The notes under the pieces are model-generated. The model was not told where the DNA came from, made no database searches, and saw only the letters and a program-made list of their open reading frames with translations. The position numbers and the translations under genes are program-made. A stretch of DNA of 37,481 nucleotides from a virus (lineage: Duplodnaviria; Heunggongvirae; Uroviricota; Caudoviricetes), in the IMG/VR virus record IMGVR_UViG_2534681936_000021, positions 1 through 37,481 of that record; one strand, written 5' to 3'. Positions 1-12,024 of the stretch are shown here, piece after piece. Position 1 is the first letter of the stretch. The number at the start of each line of letters is the position of its first letter.

Positions 1-1005
1 TTAATCCCCCGTGGACACTGCGTGGACACTTACGCCACCTTTCAGCGGATTAAGGGCCACCGCATCCTGCAGGTAATCCGGTGCAAAATGCGCATATGCC
101 ATTGTTTGCTGAATGGTTGCGTGACCAAGAATCTTCTGAAGCGCAATAATGTTTCCTCCGTTCATCACAAAATGGCTGGCGAACGTATGCCGCAGCACAT
201 GTGCAGCCTGGCCTTTTGGTAAATCGGGCTTAACTCTTTTCAGCGCCAGGCAGAATTCCCGGTACTTCACCTCAAACAAGCTGCCTGTTTCTCTGGTTTT
301 GATCGCCTCACAAACTGCCTGCGAAATTGGCACTGTTCTCTTCCGGCCATTTTTGGTTTCAAGAAACGTTACACGGTTATGAACTATCTGTTCACCACGA
401 AGCTTACAAGCTTCACTCCAGCGCGCCCCTGTGCTTAAACACAAAAGCGCAACACGCCAGTAGTCGCCCTCCAGTGTATCGAGCAATAGCGCCACTTCCT
501 TCTGTGACAGGAACGCCATTTCTCGTGGAGATACATAAAGAATAGAAATTCCCCTTACTGGATGTTCTGCATCCCAAAGACCTATTTTTTTCAGCACGGT
601 AAACATTCCGGATAACCGATTCATGTACCTGTTAGCAGATGACGGTTTCAATCCTTCAGCTATCTTTTGAGAACGCCACGCGATAATTTTCAGCTTATCA
701 AGATCCACAGCCTGCATATCAGCGCCAAGCTCATTAATTATGTTGCGCAGTTGTTTTCGGTCTTCTTCCGCCTTACGCCTGTGCTGGCCGTGATACATCC
801 ACCACAACTCAAGCAAATCATTTAGCGTTCGACGATCACGGTAGCCCTGTATATATTCCCGCTTTTCAGCGTTCGCCATGATGTAGCGTTCAGTGGCCAC
901 CGCTACCGATTTTTTGTCAAATACCTTACGCACGCGCTTTCCCTTGCGTCCGTTCGGCCTGATGTCCAGCAAATAACGACCATCTTCGAGCTTCTTAATC
1001 GACAT
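1..1005 (-). CDS. int: tyrosine integrase, P2 Int-like
   Basis: Translation from the ATG at 1005 begins MSIKKLEDGRY...; C-terminal catalytic region HVLRHTFASHF...GH...Y resembles P2 Int as recalled. The track ORF starts at an upstream TTG (1020). Confidence 0.9.
   Translation of the reverse strand: MSIKKLEDGRYLLDIRPNGRKGKRVRKVFDKKSVAVATERYIMANAEKREYIQGYRDRRTLNDLLELWWMYHGQHRRKAEEDRKQLRNIINELGADMQAVDLDKLKIIAWRSQKIAEGLKPSSANRYMNRLSGMFTVLKKIGLWDAEHPVRGISILYVSPREMAFLSQKEVALLLDTLEGDYWRVALLCLSTGARWSEACKLRGEQIVHNRVTFLETKNGRKRTVPISQAVCEAIKTRETGSLFEVKYREFCLALKRVKPDLPKGQAAHVLRHTFASHFVMNGGNIIALQKILGHATIQQTMAYAHFAPDYLQDAVALNPLKGGVSVHAVSTGD
10..29. repeat. candidate attL core (tandem cgtggacac units) inside the int 3' end
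   Basis: cgtggacactgcgtggacac matches 36300-36319 at 17 of 20 positions in direct orientation. Confidence 0.35.
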
Positions 1006-4712: not shown

Positions 4713-5078
4713 ATGATTCTCGCCAACGACTTTCTTGAATACCTGCTCAACACAGAACGTGATCTTGCCGCTCGCGTGCGTGATCGTTATGACATGTACC
4801 AGAAATCCCTGCCTGTACCGCAGCTCGCTGACGGAAAGATTGTTATTGATGGTCGCTACATGATTGACAGCCACGAGGGAAATTACAGGCTTTACCGCAT
4901 TGAAGGTGGCACCCCGTCCGTTATTGGCATTTACCAGCGCCCATCCTCTGCAATCGTCGATGTGATTGCCGACAGCATCCGCATCACACATCGCCATGCC
5001 GACACAGAAGACACCGTGCTGGAAATTCAGCGGCTGGCTGCCGTCTGCCGCGACACCCTGAATGGCATGACGAAGTAA
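4713..5078 (+). CDS. hypothetical protein preceding replication gene A (121 aa)
   Basis: RBS aagagga upstream; clean ORF ending 6 nt before the gene A start. Confidence 0.55.
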   Translation: MILANDFLEYLLNTERDLAARVRDRYDMYQKSLPVPQLADGKIVIDGRYMIDSHEGNYRLYRIEGGTPSVIGIYQRPSSAIVDVIADSIRITHRHADTEDTVLEIQRLAAVCRDTLNGMTK

Positions 5079-5084
5079 ATCACT

Positions 5085-7943
5085 ATGACGGCAGAGTACA
5101 TCAGGGACTGGCAACAACCGCGCCACGCAGTGGGGCGTGAAGGAACGGGGATCCCCGTTCCTGAATCCGCGCTTTCCTCCTGGCTGGATGCCTACCGGGC
5201 AGAGAACGAGCGCCGCCAGGAAATGGCTGATGCGGCGTTCTCCGCCACGCCGCTGAGCAACCTGATTAATAAAAGCCTGGACGCACAGGAAAAACAGGAC
5301 AAAACCATCACACTGGCAGGAGACGCCAGAAAACAGGCACGCGGCGCGGTGGATGAAGCCATGGCCTCGCTGCGCCTGCTGCCGTCCTATCTGCGCGATC
5401 CGCTTATTCGCCACCTCTCCTTCCTGCGCAAAAAACAGGAAGCCGATCGCCGGAAAGGCAAAAAGAGCTGGCAGGCTGAACGCTACGCGCGCGGAACCCT
5501 GCGCAAAATATTCGAACGTCTGGACCGCACCGACCACCGCTGGCTGACACCGGGTTATCGCTCCCTTGCCGGACGCGAACGCCTGGATGATTTGCTTTAC
5601 CTGCCGCAGCTCAACCAGCACCAGATACAGACGCTGGCCACCATGACGGCGGCGATGTTCAGCAGCACCTTCGAAAAACTCTGCGATGGCTTTGGCGCGA
5701 CCGATGGCGAACTGACCATGGATGTAACGCTGAAGGCGTATCAGATGCTGGCCCGCATGGCGTTACACCTGCACGCCATGCCGCCACATTACGAAGCTCT
5801 GAACAAGAGCGATCCGGATACGGAACTGTTACCGGGCGCAATCCTTCGCCTGACCTGTGCGGAATGGTGGAAACGCAAACTGTGGCTGTTACGTTGCGAG
5901 TGGCGGGAAGAACAACTCCGCGCCGCCTGTCTGGTTTCCAAAAAAACATCGCCCTATCTGAGCCAGGACGCGTTAAGCGAGTTTCGCGCACAGCGCGAGA
6001 AAACACGCGATTTCCTGAAAAGTTTCATGCTGGAAAACGAAGACGGGTTCACGATTGATCTCGAGACAGTGTATTACGCGGGAGTAAGTAACCCGGTTCA
6101 CCGTAAGGCAGAAATGATGGCCACCATGAAGGGGCTGGAACTTCTGGCCGAAGCCCGTGGCGACAAAGCGGTGTTTCTGACCATCACCTGCCCGTCAAAA
6201 TACCACGCCACAACAGAGAACGGTCATCCGAATCCCAAATGGAACGGGGCCACCATGCGCGACTCCAGCGATTACCTGGTTAACACGTTTTTTGCGGCGG
6301 TCCGCAAGAAACTGAACCGCGACGGCCTGCGCTGGTATGGCATCCGCACAGTGGAGCCTCACCATGACGGCACCGTGCACTGGCATATGATGGTCTTTGC
6401 TCATCCGGAAGAAATCGACACCATTGTGTCCCACACCCGCGATATTGCCATTCAGGAAGATCGTCACGAGCTGGGTGATGATATTACCCCACGCTTTAAG
6501 GCGGAGTACGTCGACGGCTCAAAAGGCACGCCAACCAGCTACATCGCCACCTACATCGGAAAGAACCTGGACAGCCGCGCCGTAGATGGCATCGACCCGA
6601 AAACGGGCAAGCCACGCGTTGACCACGAAACCGGAAAATCGATGGCCGAGAGCGTGGAACGCGCCATCGGCTGGGCGCGCCTTCACCGTGTCCGCCAGTT
6701 CCAGTTCTTTGGTATCCCCTCCCGTCAGGTGTGGCGTGAACTCCGCCGCCTTGCCAGCCAGATGGCACGCAACCCGGAAGGCCCGCAACGGCTGAAGGAT
6801 GACGCAATGGATGCGGTACTCGCTGCCGCTGATGCCGGATGTTTTGCCACCTACATAGAGAAACAGGGCGGCGTACTTGTTCCACGCAAAGACTACCTGA
6901 TTCGCACCGCCTACGACCTCGCAGATGAGCTGAACGATTACGGCGAACAGAGCGTACAGATTTACGGGATCTGGTCACCACTCATCGGGGAATCCTCCCG
7001 TGTGTGCACGCATCCGGATAACTGGAAGCTGGTAAGACGCAAACCGGAAGCGGAAGACAGCGCCCGCGAAAATGGTTTTGACCTTCAGGGCGCCCCTGCC
7101 GCCCCTTGGACTCGTGGCAATAACTGTCCCCGTATACAGGAAACGGGCAACAACGGGACAGAACAGCCGGAAGAACGGCCAGCACCGTGGCCGCAGCTTC
7201 CTGACGGCGTTGACGTGAATGAATGGATGCGCTCACTGAAACGGCACGAACACCGGGCGCTGATGCGTTCGCTGCGTGACAAACAGGCAAAAAACAGCAG
7301 TGATGAAATGCAGAACTGGACACAGAGCCGCAAACAGCCACAGCCTTTGCCTGATAACCACGAGTTACTCGCTAAAGAATGGCGGGAGTCTGCTGAATCT
7401 CTCGGCCTGCATATCGGTGAACAGCAGATGCAGCACCTGTTACGGGGCGGCAGTCTGTACGTTGACGGCAGCATCATTGCACCGCAGGGATTTGAAATTG
7501 TACGCAAACCGGATACCCGCCCGGACAGCCGAATCACGCAGCTCTGGCAACGCCTGAGCCGTAATCACGGCGTAAGCAGCACGGAGATCCGCCATAACCC
7601 GGTCGCCAGCTATCTGGAACAGCTGGGGGCATCAGACCCCGAAGCCGCCACACGCCTGGAATCCACACTTCAGCAGGACCAGAACACCATGAAAACCCCC
7701 GTTACCGTGCTTTCTGACATGCTGTGCGCCATCCGTGACGCAGAGCACGCACAGAGAATCAGTGAAACCACTGAACGCGCCCGCCGCAAAGCAGACCTGC
7801 TGCGGGGTAGCCTGACCAGTGGAAACAAAAAACAGACAGAAACGGGACTCACAAATCCCGTAAATGAGCAAAAACGTGCCGCGATATATGAAGCGCGCAC
7901 AAAACAGGCAAAAGCGGGATTTAAAAATCCTGTAACCGATTAA
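5085..7943 (+). CDS. A: replication initiation endonuclease, P2 gpA family (rolling-circle HUH nickase), 952 aa
   Basis: HUH-like motif EPHHDGTVHWHMMVF and tyrosine motif YIATYIGK in the translation; position after the early genes as in P2. Confidence 0.9.
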   Translation: MTAEYIRDWQQPRHAVGREGTGIPVPESALSSWLDAYRAENERRQEMADAAFSATPLSNLINKSLDAQEKQDKTITLAGDARKQARGAVDEAMASLRLLPSYLRDPLIRHLSFLRKKQEADRRKGKKSWQAERYARGTLRKIFERLDRTDHRWLTPGYRSLAGRERLDDLLYLPQLNQHQIQTLATMTAAMFSSTFEKLCDGFGATDGELTMDVTLKAYQMLARMALHLHAMPPHYEALNKSDPDTELLPGAILRLTCAEWWKRKLWLLRCEWREEQLRAACLVSKKTSPYLSQDALSEFRAQREKTRDFLKSFMLENEDGFTIDLETVYYAGVSNPVHRKAEMMATMKGLELLAEARGDKAVFLTITCPSKYHATTENGHPNPKWNGATMRDSSDYLVNTFFAAVRKKLNRDGLRWYGIRTVEPHHDGTVHWHMMVFAHPEEIDTIVSHTRDIAIQEDRHELGDDITPRFKAEYVDGSKGTPTSYIATYIGKNLDSRAVDGIDPKTGKPRVDHETGKSMAESVERAIGWARLHRVRQFQFFGIPSRQVWRELRRLASQMARNPEGPQRLKDDAMDAVLAAADAGCFATYIEKQGGVLVPRKDYLIRTAYDLADELNDYGEQSVQIYGIWSPLIGESSRVCTHPDNWKLVRRKPEAEDSARENGFDLQGAPAAPWTRGNNCPRIQETGNNGTEQPEERPAPWPQLPDGVDVNEWMRSLKRHEHRALMRSLRDKQAKNSSDEMQNWTQSRKQPQPLPDNHELLAKEWRESAESLGLHIGEQQMQHLLRGGSLYVDGSIIAPQGFEIVRKPDTRPDSRITQLWQRLSRNHGVSSTEIRHNPVASYLEQLGASDPEAATRLESTLQQDQNTMKTPVTVLSDMLCAIRDAEHAQRISETTERARRKADLLRGSLTSGNKKQTETGLTNPVNEQKRAAIYEARTKQAKAGFKNPVTD

Positions 7944-7967: not shown

Positions 7968-8927
7968 ATGAAAATTTGTATCGATGACGGCTCCACCAAC
8001 ATCAAGCTGGCATGGACTGAGAACGGCGAACGCCGCAACGCCATCAGCCCAAACAGCTTCAAGTCGGAATGGTCTGCGCCGTTCGGTGGCACGCAGCCCG
8101 CGAACTACATGCTTGATGGCGTGCGCTATGGTTTTGATCCGGTCAGCGATCGCTTTGTCCAGACGACCGACACGCAATACCAGTACAGCGATGTGAATGT
8201 CATTGCTATTCATCACGCGCTGGTCAAATCAGGCATCACACCACAGGAAGTGGATGTGGTTGTCACCCTGCCACTGAGCGAATATTTCGACACAAACGCA
8301 CAGCCGGACATGGTCAACATCAACCGCAAAAAAGCGAACGTCATGCGCCCGGTGGAGTACCAGAACGGCGAAGCATTCACTATCCGTAACGTACGGGTTA
8401 TGCCTGAATCCATTCCGGCTGGCTTTAAAGCACTGGCTGACATGAGTCCGTTTGAATCCCTGCTGATTGTGGATTTGGGCGGAACCACGCTGGATGTGGC
8501 AAAGGTTCAGGGGCAACTGGCAGGTATCAGCCAGGTGTTTTGCGATCCACACGTAGGCGTTTCTCTGATGGCCGATGCCGTACTGTCGGTGATGGCCACT
8601 AACGGTATGCGCACCAGTCACCACATCGCCAATACCATTATCGAACGTCGCCATAATGAAGCCTGGCTGCGCCAGCACATCCACAATGACGCGCATTACG
8701 CCAGCCTGATGGCGGTTATTCGTGAAAAGGAAGAAACACTGAAACAACGCGTGATCCGCGCGCTGGCGGGTTTTTCGGGTTACGGGCGGGTGATGGTTGT
8801 CGGTGGAGGGGCGGAGATTGTGGCACCCGCTATCCGCGAAGCCTGCGGAGTTAATGCGACTTTCATCGCGGACGGGGTGCCACAGTTTGCTCTGGTTAAT
8901 GGGCTGTACGCAATGGACAAGGAGTAA
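7968..8927 (+). CDS. parM: ParM/StbA-family actin-like ATPase
   Basis: N-terminus MKICIDDGSTNIKLAW plus YSDVNVIAIHHAL, VMPESIPAGF, LIVDLGGTTLDV and VMVVGGGAE closely parallel plasmid R1 ParM as recalled. Confidence 0.85.
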   Translation: MKICIDDGSTNIKLAWTENGERRNAISPNSFKSEWSAPFGGTQPANYMLDGVRYGFDPVSDRFVQTTDTQYQYSDVNVIAIHHALVKSGITPQEVDVVVTLPLSEYFDTNAQPDMVNINRKKANVMRPVEYQNGEAFTIRNVRVMPESIPAGFKALADMSPFESLLIVDLGGTTLDVAKVQGQLAGISQVFCDPHVGVSLMADAVLSVMATNGMRTSHHIANTIIERRHNEAWLRQHIHNDAHYASLMAVIREKEETLKQRVIRALAGFSGYGRVMVVGGGAEIVAPAIREACGVNATFIADGVPQFALVNGLYAMDKE

Positions 8928-9284: not shown

Positions 9285-9430
9285 TCATTCCATTTGGCAC
9301 ACTTACTTCAATAATCGATCTGTTAAACAAATAGATTGTCTATTATCTATCGATTAAAACGATCAATTATCTTGACAGTAATGTGCCTTTTTGTAAGATC
9401 GTTCGCATTGTGAGCGACAAGATAATTGCG
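9285..9430. repeat. iteron-like repeat cluster (four CGATC/TCGAT cores; inverted repeat caattatcttg / caagataattg)
   Basis: Seen directly in the sequence downstream of parR; candidate centromere or operator. Confidence 0.35.
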
Positions 9431-9448
9431 CGGCATTGTCCATGCAAA

Positions 9449-9478
9449 ACGCCCCAATAGCAGCAACTATTGGGGCGT
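9449..9478. other. perfect 12-bp stem hairpin (acgccccaatag / ctattggggcgt)
   Basis: Perfect inverted repeat with a 6-nt loop, flanked by AAAA on one side. Confidence 0.5.
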
Positions 9479-9505
9479 AAAACTCGGTCGGACTCACTTA
9501 ACCTG

Positions 9506-9590
9506 ATATGCGTGCCTTCCGAAGTAAATCAAAATGTGCGTCGTATATTTTATTGCTTACACGCACCTCTGTAAAGGCACGCATATTTTT
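9506..9590 (+). promoter_or_regulatory. nested palindromes plus T-run immediately upstream of the 89-aa ORF (attenuator/terminator-like leader)
   Basis: 13-bp perfect inverted repeat atatgcgtgcctt / aaggcacgcatat enclosing an inner gtgcgt/acgcac pair, followed by TTTTT and then the RBS. Confidence 0.4.
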
Positions 9591-9607
9591 CCTATGAGGT
9601 AAATAAA

Positions 9608-9877
9608 GTGCGGGCTAAAACAGGTATTTGCAAGAACCCTCATCGTTATAATCCAACATTTCTGTCTCTCCCTGAATATCAAGGACAAGAAGGTCGGCAC
9701 AAATGCGCTGCCTGTGCTTTTGAGCTAGGCATAAAAGATGCGCTTGAAGGACGCGCTATGGCTCAGAATGATTTAGTTTTAGCTAACATTCCGTTTAGCC
9801 AGGCTGGAACTGTAAGGCACAGAGATGCCTATGAAGCATATGTTCGTGGTTGGCGATTAATACACAGCAACAATTGA
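9608..9877 (+). CDS. hypothetical 89-aa protein (GTG start)
   Basis: RBS gaggt 7 nt upstream; ORF followed directly by an intrinsic terminator; no family recognised. Confidence 0.4.
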   Translation: MRAKTGICKNPHRYNPTFLSLPEYQGQEGRHKCAACAFELGIKDALEGRAMAQNDLVLANIPFSQAGTVRHRDAYEAYVRGWRLIHSNN

Positions 9878-9885
9878 TACTTTTG

Positions 9886-9909
9886 AAGCGCCGATAAGGC
9901 GCTTTTTTT
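9886..9909 (+). terminator. intrinsic terminator (aagcgcc-gataa-ggcgctt followed by T7)
   Basis: 7-bp stem, 5-nt loop and T-run 9 nt after the ORF stop. Confidence 0.65.
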
Positions 9910-10438
9910 GTTTGCACGATAGTGCACAAGTTTGCACAATTTTTTTGAACGACTTTTTGTACTTCCGGCCCGCGTGGTGGCTGGATCCGTCAAGGATCCG
10001 TACGTGCACAAAAAAACGCGTTTTTTCTGCGCGCAGGTGACGGGGGAACAGCCCGCGTTTCAGGGGGTAAACAGCATTCCCTGAACGATGTCGCAGCGAC
10101 ACAACGGAATGGCTGTCTTTCTCACGCTGAGCGTGAAAAATACGTGAGGGCTTTTGATTTGATGGGGTGACTGATAAGGCCGTCAAAATCGCACTGAGGC
10201 GACGAGAACATGCAGTCAGCACGGCGGGATTGCGTAAGAGCCTGACCGTCGATGATGACAATAAGCTGGAAGGCGTCGTGAAATTATCTGATTGATACAG
10301 GAGCTGGAGAGTCGGGGCATAAATTTTTTATGCCCCGGCGAAGCAGCAGACAAGCGAAGCGCGTCAGCGATACGGCACCTTGCCGACCATACTTCATAAG
10401 TGCAAAATACGAGCAAAGAAATCAATGGAGGCTGTCTT

Positions 10439-10963
10439 ATGGTCATTAATTACAAGCAGTTAAGAGAAAAACGGGAGCAGGTAAAGGAGAGCTTTCGCCG
10501 CAATGAAGATCTGACCCCGCTTGTACGCCTTGCCCAGGGCATTGTTGATGCTTATGAAATCTCGCTGGAGCTGCCATCACAGACCTGGACAGATAGCGAC
10601 GGTAATCGCCAGCATTACGTTTCATGCGGACTGGAAGCAGCCGAAGGATTTCGCAGAATGCCTTTATCCCAGATCCCTGCCGCTACCCCCAAAGCACGAG
10701 GCAGCAATGATGAGCGAAAACTGACTTTTAGTATTGAAACGGTGGTTGACGACACACCTGGCGAAGTCGCGTTCGTGCACACTCCTGTTTCGATCGCAAT
10801 GTATAACGATGAAATACAGGTTCGCGTTAATAATAATATCGTGCCACTTAAAGAAGGTAATTCACCCTACACCACCGTTTGTGAAGCCATTCAATATTAC
10901 GTTCTCTCTGAAATTGATAATCTCAAGCCTGACGGCACCCAGAAAATGGTTCAACTCTGGTAA
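10439..10963 (+). CDS. hypothetical 174-aa protein, unknown function
   Basis: RBS ggagg 8 nt upstream of the ATG at 10439; ends at the bidirectional terminator shared with Q. Confidence 0.5.
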   Translation: MVINYKQLREKREQVKESFRRNEDLTPLVRLAQGIVDAYEISLELPSQTWTDSDGNRQHYVSCGLEAAEGFRRMPLSQIPAATPKARGSNDERKLTFSIETVVDDTPGEVAFVHTPVSIAMYNDEIQVRVNNNIVPLKEGNSPYTTVCEAIQYYVLSEIDNLKPDGTQKMVQLW

Positions 10964-10994
10964 AAAGGACAGCCCCATCACGGGGCTGTTTTTT
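10964..10994. terminator. bidirectional intrinsic terminator between the 174-aa ORF and Q
   Basis: aaaaa-acagcccc-atcac-ggggctgt-tttttt: 8-bp stem flanked by an A-run and a T-run. Confidence 0.65.
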
Positions 10995-12024
10995 CATCAA
11001 GAAGAGCATAAGAGTTAAAACGGATCACCTCTTCGCCAAGCCAGTCATTGATGTGCTTCATAGCCTCCATGACGGGCATCAGCTCGTTAATTGCGTAAAC
11101 CCGCGCGGCCTTCTCCACATCACCAAACGCACTTTTTTCGCCCGGCATCGCCCCCATCAGTTGCGGCGGAACGCGGTGCGCAGCCAGCACATCATCACGG
11201 GATGCCGCCTTAACATTCATGAACTCATCCTTTGCGGTGATCTGCTGGAACGGCAAAATTTGCACCCCCTCTTTGCCCCCGTTGGGCGCATGGATGAGCA
11301 CGTTTTTAAACGCACCACCACCACGCGCACCCTGTAACGTTTCTTTCAGGGAGTCCATGCTTTCGCGGTTTACCTGCGCTGCACCGATGTAGATGATGCA
11401 CCCGGCGTGGGATCCATTGTCGTAATACAGTTTTCTGAACATGTCCGCCGAATGAGACAGGCTGGCCGAGAGTAATGCGCCAAGATATTCCGGCATGCCG
11501 TAAATTTCCTGGTTAATGTCCGGATTCATCAGGTGGCACACTTTGCCAGGGCGAAACTGAAACGCGTCCTTGCCATCCTGCACATACCACCATGATTCAA
11601 GATCGCTTCCGCGTCGCATGTATTTCGCCAGGGCGTGCCGTAATTTAAGCGGTTCACCGAGCATATTGCTTCGAAGCTCAAGGAATGCGTTACCGAACAC
11701 AAACCAGTCCAGCGCCAGCGCCGAGAAATCCTGCCGGGAAAGCAGCGGGTGCGGAATATAGCAGCCGAGCAATACATTGCGCTTAAAGTAAAGCGCAGAC
11801 TGATGCCAGGACGTTTGCCGGGCAGCTCTTGCCAGACCGTACCAGTCCACCGGGGTTTCATACCACCGCCCGTTATCAGCACAGTACATATTGTCCAGCA
11901 GGTCATGCCCGGTCAGGCGATAAGGACCATCAAATGTGAATGCACTGAGCGATGATTCTTTCCTGAGCGCATCAGCGAGATCAATGCGTGAACTCATGCG
12001 CACTTTTTTATTTTTTCTGCTCAT
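10978..12024 (-). CDS. Q: portal protein, P2 gpQ-like
   Basis: 348 aa; position and size match P2 Q; divergent from O as in P2. Confidence 0.85.
   Translation of the reverse strand: MSRKNKKVRMSSRIDLADALRKESSLSAFTFDGPYRLTGHDLLDNMYCADNGRWYETPVDWYGLARAARQTSWHQSALYFKRNVLLGCYIPHPLLSRQDFSALALDWFVFGNAFLELRSNMLGEPLKLRHALAKYMRRGSDLESWWYVQDGKDAFQFRPGKVCHLMNPDINQEIYGMPEYLGALLSASLSHSADMFRKLYYDNGSHAGCIIYIGAAQVNRESMDSLKETLQGARGGGAFKNVLIHAPNGGKEGVQILPFQQITAKDEFMNVKAASRDDVLAAHRVPPQLMGAMPGEKSAFGDVEKAARVYAINELMPVMEAMKHINDWLGEEVIRFNSYALLDEKTAP

Follow-up and report, generated by a model that had tools for sequence, protein, structure and literature searches.

The segment from position 9361 to 9915 of IMG/VR virus record IMGVR_UViG_2534681936_000021, which was analysed as one stretch of 37,481 nucleotides (the window), probably constitutes an autonomous accessory-gene (moron) cassette under the control of a cis-antisense RNA. 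The window represents a P2-like (Xuanwuvirus) prophage with its closest records in the Peduoviridae, genus Xuanwuvirus, and the cassette comprises an open reading frame (ORF) of 89 aa, a long leader region, two predicted convergent promoters, a predicted small RNA (sRNA) on the minus strand and a terminator. This reading was derived from a comparison with the 280-nt segments that precede the homologous ORF in about 50 diverged loci of viruses and plasmids, according to which the predicted promoters, the sRNA stem-loops and a leader helix are conserved across sequence-diverged cassettes residing in different phage backbones. The order of promoters, sRNA, ORF and own terminator is common to these loci despite mostly unrelated leader sequences.

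An earlier note on this DNA had pointed to a hairpin, a 13-bp inverted repeat ending in five T residues, a ribosome binding site, the 89-aa ORF and a terminator, and re-examination of the sequence retrieved every one of them in place. The view that they form a stand-alone transcription unit was corroborated by an own predicted promoter and terminator and by the recurrence of the unit as a cassette at moron sites. With respect to the modes of control considered in that note, the antisense RNA gained support from a conserved minus-strand promoter, a covarying terminator and stem-loop (SL1) and a bias towards G·U pairs, whereas attenuation at the first hairpin and control by a protein operator were not supported.

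A predicted antisense RNA on the minus strand

The first palindrome, hairpin 1 (9449-9460/9467-9478), consists of 12-nt arms with 100% complementarity and a 6-nt loop. The 13-bp inverted repeat, designated IR2 (9506-9518/9574-9586), likewise possesses arms of 100% complementarity, which are separated by 55 nt that include an inner pair of 6 bp (GTGCGT at 9536-9541 and ACGCAC at 9561-9566), and it is directly joined at its end by a plus-strand T5 tract (9586-9590). The folding check that the earlier note had recommended yielded z-scores of -5.1 for the plus strand (9400-9620) and -6.5 for the minus strand (9435-9600), and none of the 200 dinucleotide shuffles generated in each case folded as well. 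The bases that follow hairpin 1 are AAAACTCGG on the plus strand, lacking a U-run, and UUUGCAUGG on the minus strand. Since a U-run is present on the latter strand alone, hairpin 1 is terminator-like only for a minus-strand transcript, and its previous interpretation as a plus-strand leader attenuator is not supported.

A promoter of the antisense RNA, P(-), was predicted at 9547..9575 on the minus strand, with the -35 hexamer TTTACA (9575..9570), a 17-nt spacer and the -10 hexamer TAAAAT (9552..9547); it matches the consensus at 10 of 12 positions and its start site is deduced to lie around position 9540. In the related loci, the plus-strand motif TGTAAAG situated 28-41 nt upstream of the start codon represents the minus-strand -35 hexamer, and the pattern (G/C)CTTTACA-17-TAnnnT occurs at constant distance from the start codon in all of the 35 or more unique cassette loci. 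Exceptions are the -10 sequence CACAAT in two loci, the -35 sequence TTTACT in one group and an 18-nt spacer in L084. The information content, computed over 19 sequences that are less than 90% identical, amounts to 1.95 bits per position in the -35 hexamer and 1.32 in the -10 hexamer, compared with 0.54 in the spacer and 0.49 in the region from +1 to +20. A conservation pattern of this kind is the footprint expected of a functional sigma-70 promoter.

Bounded by P(-) and hairpin 1, the predicted cis-antisense sRNA has a length of about 97 nt (9444..9540, minus strand) and is fully complementary to nucleotides 43-135 of the predicted mRNA leader. In the minus-strand orientation (9449..9478), hairpin 1 forms a 12-bp stem of -25 kcal/mol followed by UUUGCAUGG and thus has the properties of an intrinsic terminator, with four U residues when the closing U is counted; a consensus terminator scan missed it by one T. 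An equivalent hairpin was found in all 25 representatives, with energies ranging from -13 to -25 kcal/mol and four to six pair types at the inner stem positions. It lies 64-72 nt past the sRNA start in the relatives and 93-104 nt past it in the window, in L076/L081 and in L084. The homologous sRNAs of the relatives are predicted to measure 64-72 nt and to be composed of a single-stranded 5' tail, SL1, a U-rich stretch and the terminator. On the minus strand of these loci, the hairpin comes after the U-rich stretch and is itself followed by UUUCC(C)UUAU, UUUUCCUAU or a canonical run of six to seven U (L076/L081). A side observation concerns L004 and L050, two near-identical P22-like cassettes that share the same terminator stems (equivalent to 9449-9478) and carry the 6-nt loop in inverted form (cggcaa and ttgccg), which is the signature of a palindrome flip.

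A covariance model, R1, was created from six P22-like copies and includes a 9-bp SL1 together with a 12-bp terminator stem. The covariance-model alignment was used instead of a plain MAFFT alignment, in which hairpin indels were misaligned under RNAalifold. In 25 loci belonging to four sequence groups, R1 gave full-length minus-strand matches immediately before the ORF; one of the alleles so matched is the sister P2-like one (E = 1e-9 to 5e-6). Further matches lie on chromosomes of E. whittamii and Pantoea. In the resulting alignment, 96% of the cells are paired, and compensatory changes were detected at 16 of 21 pairs (89 cells), among them 9 of the 12 terminator pairs. The covariation score of 0.551, which is to be read with the caveat that the alignment is fitted to the model, compares with a shuffle mean of 0.191 (0 of 500 shuffles reached it) and with values of 0.04-0.09 for slid registers. 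The ratio of G·U to A·C pairs is 73:5 in the minus-strand reading, which argues that the structured RNA is the minus-strand transcript. The window itself is matched by R1 in the terminator alone (9450-9480, minus strand, E = 0.0018); in this allele the predicted sRNA has a substituted body that exceeds the others in length by about 25 nt.

The comparison between groups also bears on the suggestion that the palindromes are DNA operators for a repressor of the promoters, either the 89-aa protein itself or the ParR homologue encoded upstream, which is extremely improbable. Such a role would suit the perfect 13-bp arms flanking the -10 region and the start site of P(-), the presence of another, imperfect 26-nt palindrome next to the plus-strand promoter, and the basic character and probable Zn site of a protein whose domain is fused elsewhere to the DNA-related DndB/DpdB, NOV_C and WYL domains. 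However, the arms differ wholly in sequence, length and spacing between the groups, with the conserved residues of the protein being unchanged. The hairpin stems covary freely, and pairing is preserved by G·U pairs, which are relevant to RNA and not to duplex DNA.

Scans of the window and of related loci against Rfam, using both E-value and gathering thresholds, returned sub-threshold, terminator-like matches only. The best scores were obtained for sar (RF00262; 22.1 bits, threshold 45) and ctRNA_pGA1 (RF00236; 22.0 bits, threshold 43), which in both cases refer to the terminator hairpins of these RNAs on the minus strand, followed by Spot_42 (RF00021; 19.4 bits, threshold 80) and CopA (RF00042; 15.1 bits, threshold 60). 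The scan of six related loci at the gathering threshold detected nothing at the sRNA. A known RNA family was rejected as the identity of the sRNA on these sub-threshold scores.

Leader, upstream promoter and proposed mode of control

The predicted sigma-70 promoter of the ORF mRNA, P(+), extends over 9361..9400 on the plus strand when the Dam sites are included and is composed of the -35 hexamer TTGACA (9372-9377), a 16-nt spacer and the -10 hexamer TAAGAT (9394-9399), corresponding to 10 of 12 consensus matches. No other plus-strand promoter with at least 8 of 12 matches was found between P(+) and the ORF. Apart from L076/L081 (Enterobacter/Klebsiella) and L084 (Serratia), all cassette groups have the motif TTGAnn-16..18-TAnnAT at a distance of 200-236 nt upstream of the start codon; in the two exceptions, TTGTGC/TTGCAA at -258 to -265 provided the best matches. 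One GATC site of the window (9361-9364) is situated 11 nt upstream of the -35 hexamer, and another (9397-9400) overlaps the -10 hexamer. Likewise, a GATC site occurs about 10 nt upstream of the -35 hexamer in all groups but L076/L081 and L084, often together with another one over the -10 region (TA[AG]GATC). The density of GATC sites is 13.7 per kb in the leaders versus 2.4 per kb in the flanks of the same loci, a 5.6-fold enrichment. P(+) accordingly shows the hallmark of a Dam-regulated promoter of the IS10 pIN type, namely a GATC site within the -10 or -35 hexamer, and by analogy methylation of the GATC sites probably gates P(+).

Judged from the position of P(+), the predicted 5' leader comprises about 202 nt (9406..9607, plus strand), and the predicted plus-strand start is followed, in the majority of groups, by a 5' stem-loop that covaries. 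Within the leader, IR2 (9506..9590, plus strand) forms a helix that is present in the minimum-free-energy fold; its left arm belongs to the sRNA-complementary region, whereas its right arm overlaps the -35 hexamer of P(-), is followed by T5 and ends 10-25 nt short of the Shine-Dalgarno (SD) sequence. The complementarity between the sRNA-covered segment and the segment from the -35 hexamer to the SD was compared with that of shuffled sequences. The z-score is -4.6 for the window, -3.5 and -5.6 for the second P2-like allele (L040/43), -3.1 to -4.0 for the lambda-like loci L003/46/5, -3.2 and -4.6 for L055/63 and down to -5.3 for several P22-like loci. The helix is of different sequence in each group and weak in some P22-like loci. 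Since the sRNA holds one arm only, the helix is a property of the plus-strand RNA, and the ORF mRNA is therefore argued to start upstream, at P(+). By this comparative test, the 13-bp repeat is a predicted leader helix joining the sRNA target to the region before the SD. When the sRNA-covered segment was constrained in the folding, the predicted SD accessibility fell in 13 of 15 leaders; SD occlusion was not relied on as a conserved switch, the drop being small in the relatives and absent from the window.

The helix and its T5 tract are also the elements on which pure leader attenuation would depend, with hairpin 1 and the 13-bp repeat acting as alternative terminator and antiterminator of the plus strand and no antisense RNA being involved. 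The 13-bp helix has a GC-rich core followed by AUAUUUUU, its counterparts in many P22-like leaders and in the sister P2-like allele also precede U-rich runs, and the leader fold is very stable. The 13-bp repeat and T5 may act as an attenuator in the window allele. As a general explanation, attenuation is nevertheless very unlikely: the terminator scan does not call the 13-bp helix because it encloses 55 nt, hairpin 1 lacks a U-run on the plus strand, and neither a competing antiterminator pairing nor a conserved leader peptide was found. The invariant minus-strand promoter and the G·U bias would also be left unexplained.

With respect to peptides, the window leader contains an upstream open reading frame (uORF) of 22 codons (9534-9602; MCVVYFIAYTHLCKGTHIFPMR), the start of which is covered by the sRNA and which passes the right arm of the helix and stops in or next to the SD. 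uORFs were counted in 15 of 21 leaders versus 11.3 expected from shuffles, and ATG-initiated ones in 4 leaders versus 5.1 expected. A hok/mok-like coupling was therefore rejected as a conserved mechanism, these frames being no more common than in shuffled leaders.

The preferred reading, antisense control in cis, can be outlined as follows. An mRNA transcribed from P(+) would carry a leader of about 200 nt in front of the 89-aa ORF and would stop at the cassette's own terminator. P(-), which converges with P(+) and lies within that leader at a distance of about 30 nt before the start codon, would yield a non-coding RNA of about 97 nt, terminated at hairpin 1 and its U-run and perfectly complementary to the leader. 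Both transcripts are predicted to be made in this prophage. In the leader helix, a portion of the sRNA target would be paired with the bases immediately preceding the SD, and as the target is tied to the pre-SD region in this manner, binding of the sRNA would have to remodel the leader. Provided that the sRNA exists, repression of the ORF is the somewhat favoured outcome. It could be brought about by duplex formation and RNase III cleavage, by refolding of the leader or by transcriptional interference between the two promoters, which are about 135 bp apart; these routes are drawn by analogy from hok/sok, IS10 RNA-OUT/RNA-IN, CopA/CopT and SymR/SymE. Dam methylation would add a further level by gating P(+), as at pIN of IS10. 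The protein would then be a harmful or exclusion-type effector that is almost silent in the lysogen. An exclusion, abortive-infection or addiction effector would fit three features of the cassette, namely its location at three classical moron or defence sites, its tight double control and its swapping between near-identical phages.

A real sRNA could alternatively act mainly in trans on RNAs of a superinfecting phage or of the host and be a mere neighbour of the ORF. This is quite unlikely, although nucleotides ~10-21 of the sRNA are perfectly complementary to CGAAGUAAAUCA at 5071-5082, located 3-14 nt upstream of the gpA start codon, and although there are precedents in convergent sRNAs at prophage moron sites (PMC4104026), in the antisense RNA STnc6030 of prophage BTP1, which mediates exclusion (PMC7067206), and in the anti-sRNAs of enterohaemorrhagic Escherichia coli. 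The 12-nt match was found post hoc, with a rough chance estimate of ~0.007, and the sister allele (L042/L173) lacks such complementarity to an identical gpA translation-initiation region. Moreover, the sRNA always accompanies the ORF in unrelated backbones and always overlaps its leader. Hybridization of the sRNA with gpA initiation regions by means of RNAduplex was uninformative on a trans target, since non-cognate pairs were equally strong. The sequence CGAAGTAAATCA-NN-ATG is present both in the leader (9520-9536, under the 5' end of the sRNA) and at the start of gene A (5071-5087).

Several observations weigh against the antisense reading of the window cassette. The U-run of hairpin 1 is short (4 U), and many relatives have UUUCCCUU at this place. 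The sRNA body of the window is unrelated to that of the relatives, so that R1 recognizes its terminator only, and both start sites as well as the 3' end of the sRNA are predictions. The leader helix was absent from the L076 (Enterobacter/Klebsiella) and L084 (Serratia) types in the shuffle test, and the SD accessibility of the window leader did not drop under constraint folding (0.42 to 0.45). The protein is hydrophilic, unlike classical type I toxins. In the free window leader, ACCU (9501-9504) can pair with the SD, thereby extending the helix, and binding of the sRNA would also break the T5-ended helix. On account of these two pairing features, activation of the ORF by the sRNA, if the latter exists, has to be considered as well, and it is regarded as unlikely.

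The 89-aa protein family and its relation to known systems

The 89-aa ORF (9608-9877 including the stop codon, plus strand) begins with GTG at 9608 and is preceded by the SD sequence GAGG (9596-9599). With a match to phrog_3941 (E = 6e-49), it qualifies as a conserved gene that encodes a protein, contrary to the non-coding alternative raised in the earlier note. The family comprises 172 representatives at 50% identity according to an exhaustive search and at least 1,598 clusters at 90% identity according to a profile search, with homologues in Enterobacterales, Vibrio, Aeromonas, Bacteroidota, Treponema (Spirochaetota), Myxococcota and others. Nine residues are invariant (C8, H12, R30, H31, C33, C36, Q65, R70 and H71), and since C8, H12, C33 and C36 are among them, a C-H-C-C metal site is suggested, probably for Zn. 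The protein contains an internal duplication of the motif [LI]P..Q....RH.xA..A[FY]..G. It is soluble, hydrophilic and basic, with an isoelectric point of 9.2 and a grand average of hydropathy (GRAVY) of -0.57 (family median -0.82), and the AlphaFold2 model (predicted local distance difference test score, pLDDT, 88) consists of three amphipathic or soluble helices.

Searches of Pfam, NCBIfam, PDB, BFVD and the known anti-phage defence families of PADLOC (PADLOC-DB v2) yielded no match to the 89-aa protein. The same domain is fused elsewhere to WYL, DndB/DpdB and NOV_C nuclease domains, and it is the fusion partners (DpdB/DndB, the C-terminus of PDC-S36/TmtA in the case of NOV_C, and WYL), not the 89-aa protein, that match PADLOC models. 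The partners are nucleic-acid- or defence-related and give no direct functional assignment. The ORF is followed by an intrinsic terminator (9885-9915, plus strand; stem 9885-9905) with eight pairs, five of which are G-C, a 5-nt loop and the T-rich tail TTTTGTTTGC. Equivalent 3' terminators are found in L003 (Providencia phage), L004 (Salmonella phage) and L005 (Arsenophonus).

Control of small genes of mobile elements by cis-antisense RNAs is a known principle, and the closest parallels include type I toxin-antitoxin (TA) loci. As in hok/sok, a small gene on a mobile element is equipped with a long structured leader and with a predicted constitutive cis-antisense RNA of 65-100 nt (5' tail, stem-loop, terminator) whose complementarity lies in the leader, outside the coding region. 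Like hok/sok of plasmid R1 (parB), the window cassette is placed beside a ParM/ParR partition locus. Pairing of an antisense RNA with the putative toxin mRNA was found in silico for the predicted sRNA and leader. The typical type I toxin, however, is a small hydrophobic membrane peptide of usually less than 60 aa, whereas the cassette proteins are hydrophilic, basic, probably Zn-binding, duplicated and 85-90 aa in length. SymE and RalR are soluble exceptions among the type I systems, and their existence implies that solubility lowers the likelihood of a TA-like action of the 89-aa protein but does not exclude it. The cassette further differs from hok/sok in that it has no conserved mok-like frame and no sequence or Rfam similarity. 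A prophage-borne example of the type I class is the hokW/sokW locus in the Sakai prophage Sp5 (PMC8621323).

With regard to IS10, the transposase gene of this element is reportedly controlled by RNA-IN/RNA-OUT pairing in addition to a Dam-sensitive pIN promoter (Simons and Kleckner 1983; Roberts et al. 1985). The cassette shares with it two layers of control on a rarely needed gene, an antisense RNA of about 70 nt whose promoter is located within the 5' region, and a GATC site over the -10 region of the sense promoter. In contrast, RNA-OUT covers the transposase ribosome binding site, whereas the segment covered by the cassette sRNA stops about 55-65 nt before the SD; the cassette gene is no transposase, and Dam dependence is in this case an analogy from the placement of the GATC sites.

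Small terminator-ended antisense RNAs in control regions of temperate phages are represented by sar/ant of P22, OOP/cII of lambda and C4 of P1/P7, and among Rfam families hairpin 1 comes closest, although below threshold, to the terminator of sar, which matches on the same strand (22 bits; thresholds 43-45). These RNAs have other targets and genes, and the cassette sRNA accompanies one accessory gene instead of being part of an immunity circuit. Countertranscript-driven attenuation of plasmid rep genes, represented by pT181, pIP501 and R1 (CopA/CopT), resembles the cassette in combining an antisense RNA directed against a long leader with a helix and U-run just before the ribosome binding site, along with the weak Rfam echoes of ctRNA_pGA1 and CopA. 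In those plasmids, termination is induced by an antisense RNA that pairs upstream of the terminator; since the cassette sRNA covers the 5' arm of the helix, its binding would prevent the helix. The cassette gene is, moreover, not a replication gene.

Cargo of the P2 hotspot has in common with the cassette the cos-proximal locus, a stand-alone promoter and terminator and the swapping between near-identical phages; the cassette differs from such cargo in matching no PADLOC model. To our knowledge, no anti-phage test of the cassette has been reported. A literature search by accession, sequence strings and topic retrieved no description of it beyond an entry as 'hypothetical' in a hotspot catalogue. 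The cassette accordingly couples an undescribed sRNA family to a protein family that is likewise undescribed and whose fold lacks known neighbours. It is conceivable, although doubtful, that it represents a hitherto unrecognized type I-like class of modules with an RNA antitoxin, serving abortive infection or exclusion, in which a Dam-gated promoter and a cis-antisense RNA of 65-100 nt would hold back a soluble, internally duplicated, Zn-binding protein of about 85 aa with an unseen fold and which would hop between P2-like, P22-like and lambda-like hotspots, the sRNA allele of the window perhaps also hitting gene A of related phages. The pairing of this sRNA with this protein is absent from Rfam, Pfam, NCBIfam and PADLOC, yet common, and the cassette sits in loci that are richest in new anti-phage systems. 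Testing it could reveal, if the reading is true, a new fold of toxin or exclusion effectors and a natural combination of methylation and antisense control outside transposons.

Phage backbones and genomic site of the cassette

Homologous cassettes were assigned to different phage backbones. The P2-like group includes the window and a second allele in L039-L043. In lambda-like backbones, represented by a Providencia phage, an Arsenophonus plasmid-prophage and L044-L049, the cassette separates Q from the lysis genes and has the opposite orientation to these genes. P22-like backbones, including Salmonella phage BIS08P22 and many IMG/VR contigs, carry it downstream of cI at the position of rexAB, and two more backbone groups contain the homologous ORF. 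Cassettes were additionally found on chromosomes of Klebsiella, Citrobacter, Buttiauxella, Pantoea, Proteus and Providencia. Judging from this distribution, the cassette is a mobile unit at accessory-gene sites of unrelated temperate phages. It appears to be restricted to phages and prophages of Enterobacterales (including Morganellaceae), whereas the protein domain is far more widespread. The plasmid contexts of distant homologues gave no functional clue, and the substitutions among 32 near-identical copies of the window allele were too few to be informative on its microevolution.

In E. coli CH4793 (L092), IS1X4 is inserted at the equivalent of window positions 9530-9537 with an 8-bp target duplication. 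It sits between the start and the body of the sRNA and parts the ORF and P(-) from P(+), and may represent an inactivating event in one genome. The P22-like contig L061 harbours, at 1259-1457 and about 0.9 kb upstream of its cassette copy, an Rfam-significant C4 antisense RNA with a1/b1 targets and isrK, that is, an immunity RNA module of the P1/P7 type in a P22-like background.

Within the window, the P2 replication protein gpA (5085-7943), ParM (7968-8927) and a ParR/StbB homologue (up to 9243) are encoded on one side of the 89-aa unit, and the portal protein (10978-12024, minus strand) is encoded on the opposite side. The gpA-gpQ interval adjoining cos was defined as a P2 defence hotspot by Rousset et al. 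2022 (PMC9122126), and its cargo elsewhere includes old, tin, retrons, PARIS and others (PMC9122126). The 89-aa unit is located inside this cos-proximal interval, and its gene arrangement is present in the published hotspot catalogue, where it was entered merely as 'hypothetical' (PMC9122126). Both the site next to cos and the variable content among close phages identify it as a P2 hotspot accessory gene. Of 5,426 complete E. coli genomes, 166 contain the 677-bp region of the window allele at an identity of 95-100%, in every case on the chromosome. A comparison of the window with the sister phages L039-L043 revealed that ParM is 96-99% identical, whereas the identity is about 54% for ParR and about 63% for the 89-aa ORF. 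Since ParM is near-identical and ParR and the ORF are diverged, a recombination joint must be assumed inside the par locus, with the cassette being exchanged as an allele within one phage backbone.

A second insertion of about 630 bp (10372-11002) separates the cos-proximal region of the window from the portal gene and carries an ORF of 187 aa (10400-10963, plus strand; phrog_5091) that yielded no match in Pfam, NCBIfam or PADLOC. Escherichia phage 520873 has just 18 bp at this place. With its 187-aa ORF, the insertion adds another uncharacterised cargo to this P2 hotspot.

The region 9906-10030 is crowded with short repeats, comprising two copies each of GTTTGCAC (9910 and 9930), GTGCACAA and GGATCCGT (9983 and 9994), as well as an 8-bp self-complementary palindrome centred around 10018-10019 (AAAAAACG/CGTTTTTT). 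The record of Xuanwuvirus P884B11 starts at about window position 9958, and 9906-10030 is therefore probably the cos/packaging region, in which case the 89-aa cassette would be the last gene before the genome end.

An imperfect inverted repeat of 26 nt with 73% complementarity (9311-9370) is situated directly upstream of the -35 hexamer of P(+). It contains nested perfect 8-bp arms (TAATCGAT/ATCGATTA) and GATC sites at 9317 and 9361, and it is kept in the sister allele of L039-L043. As the parM start is located 25 nt past the gpA stop, there is no space for an upstream parC, and the 26-nt repeat could be a ParR centromere or operator that couples ParR to P(+).

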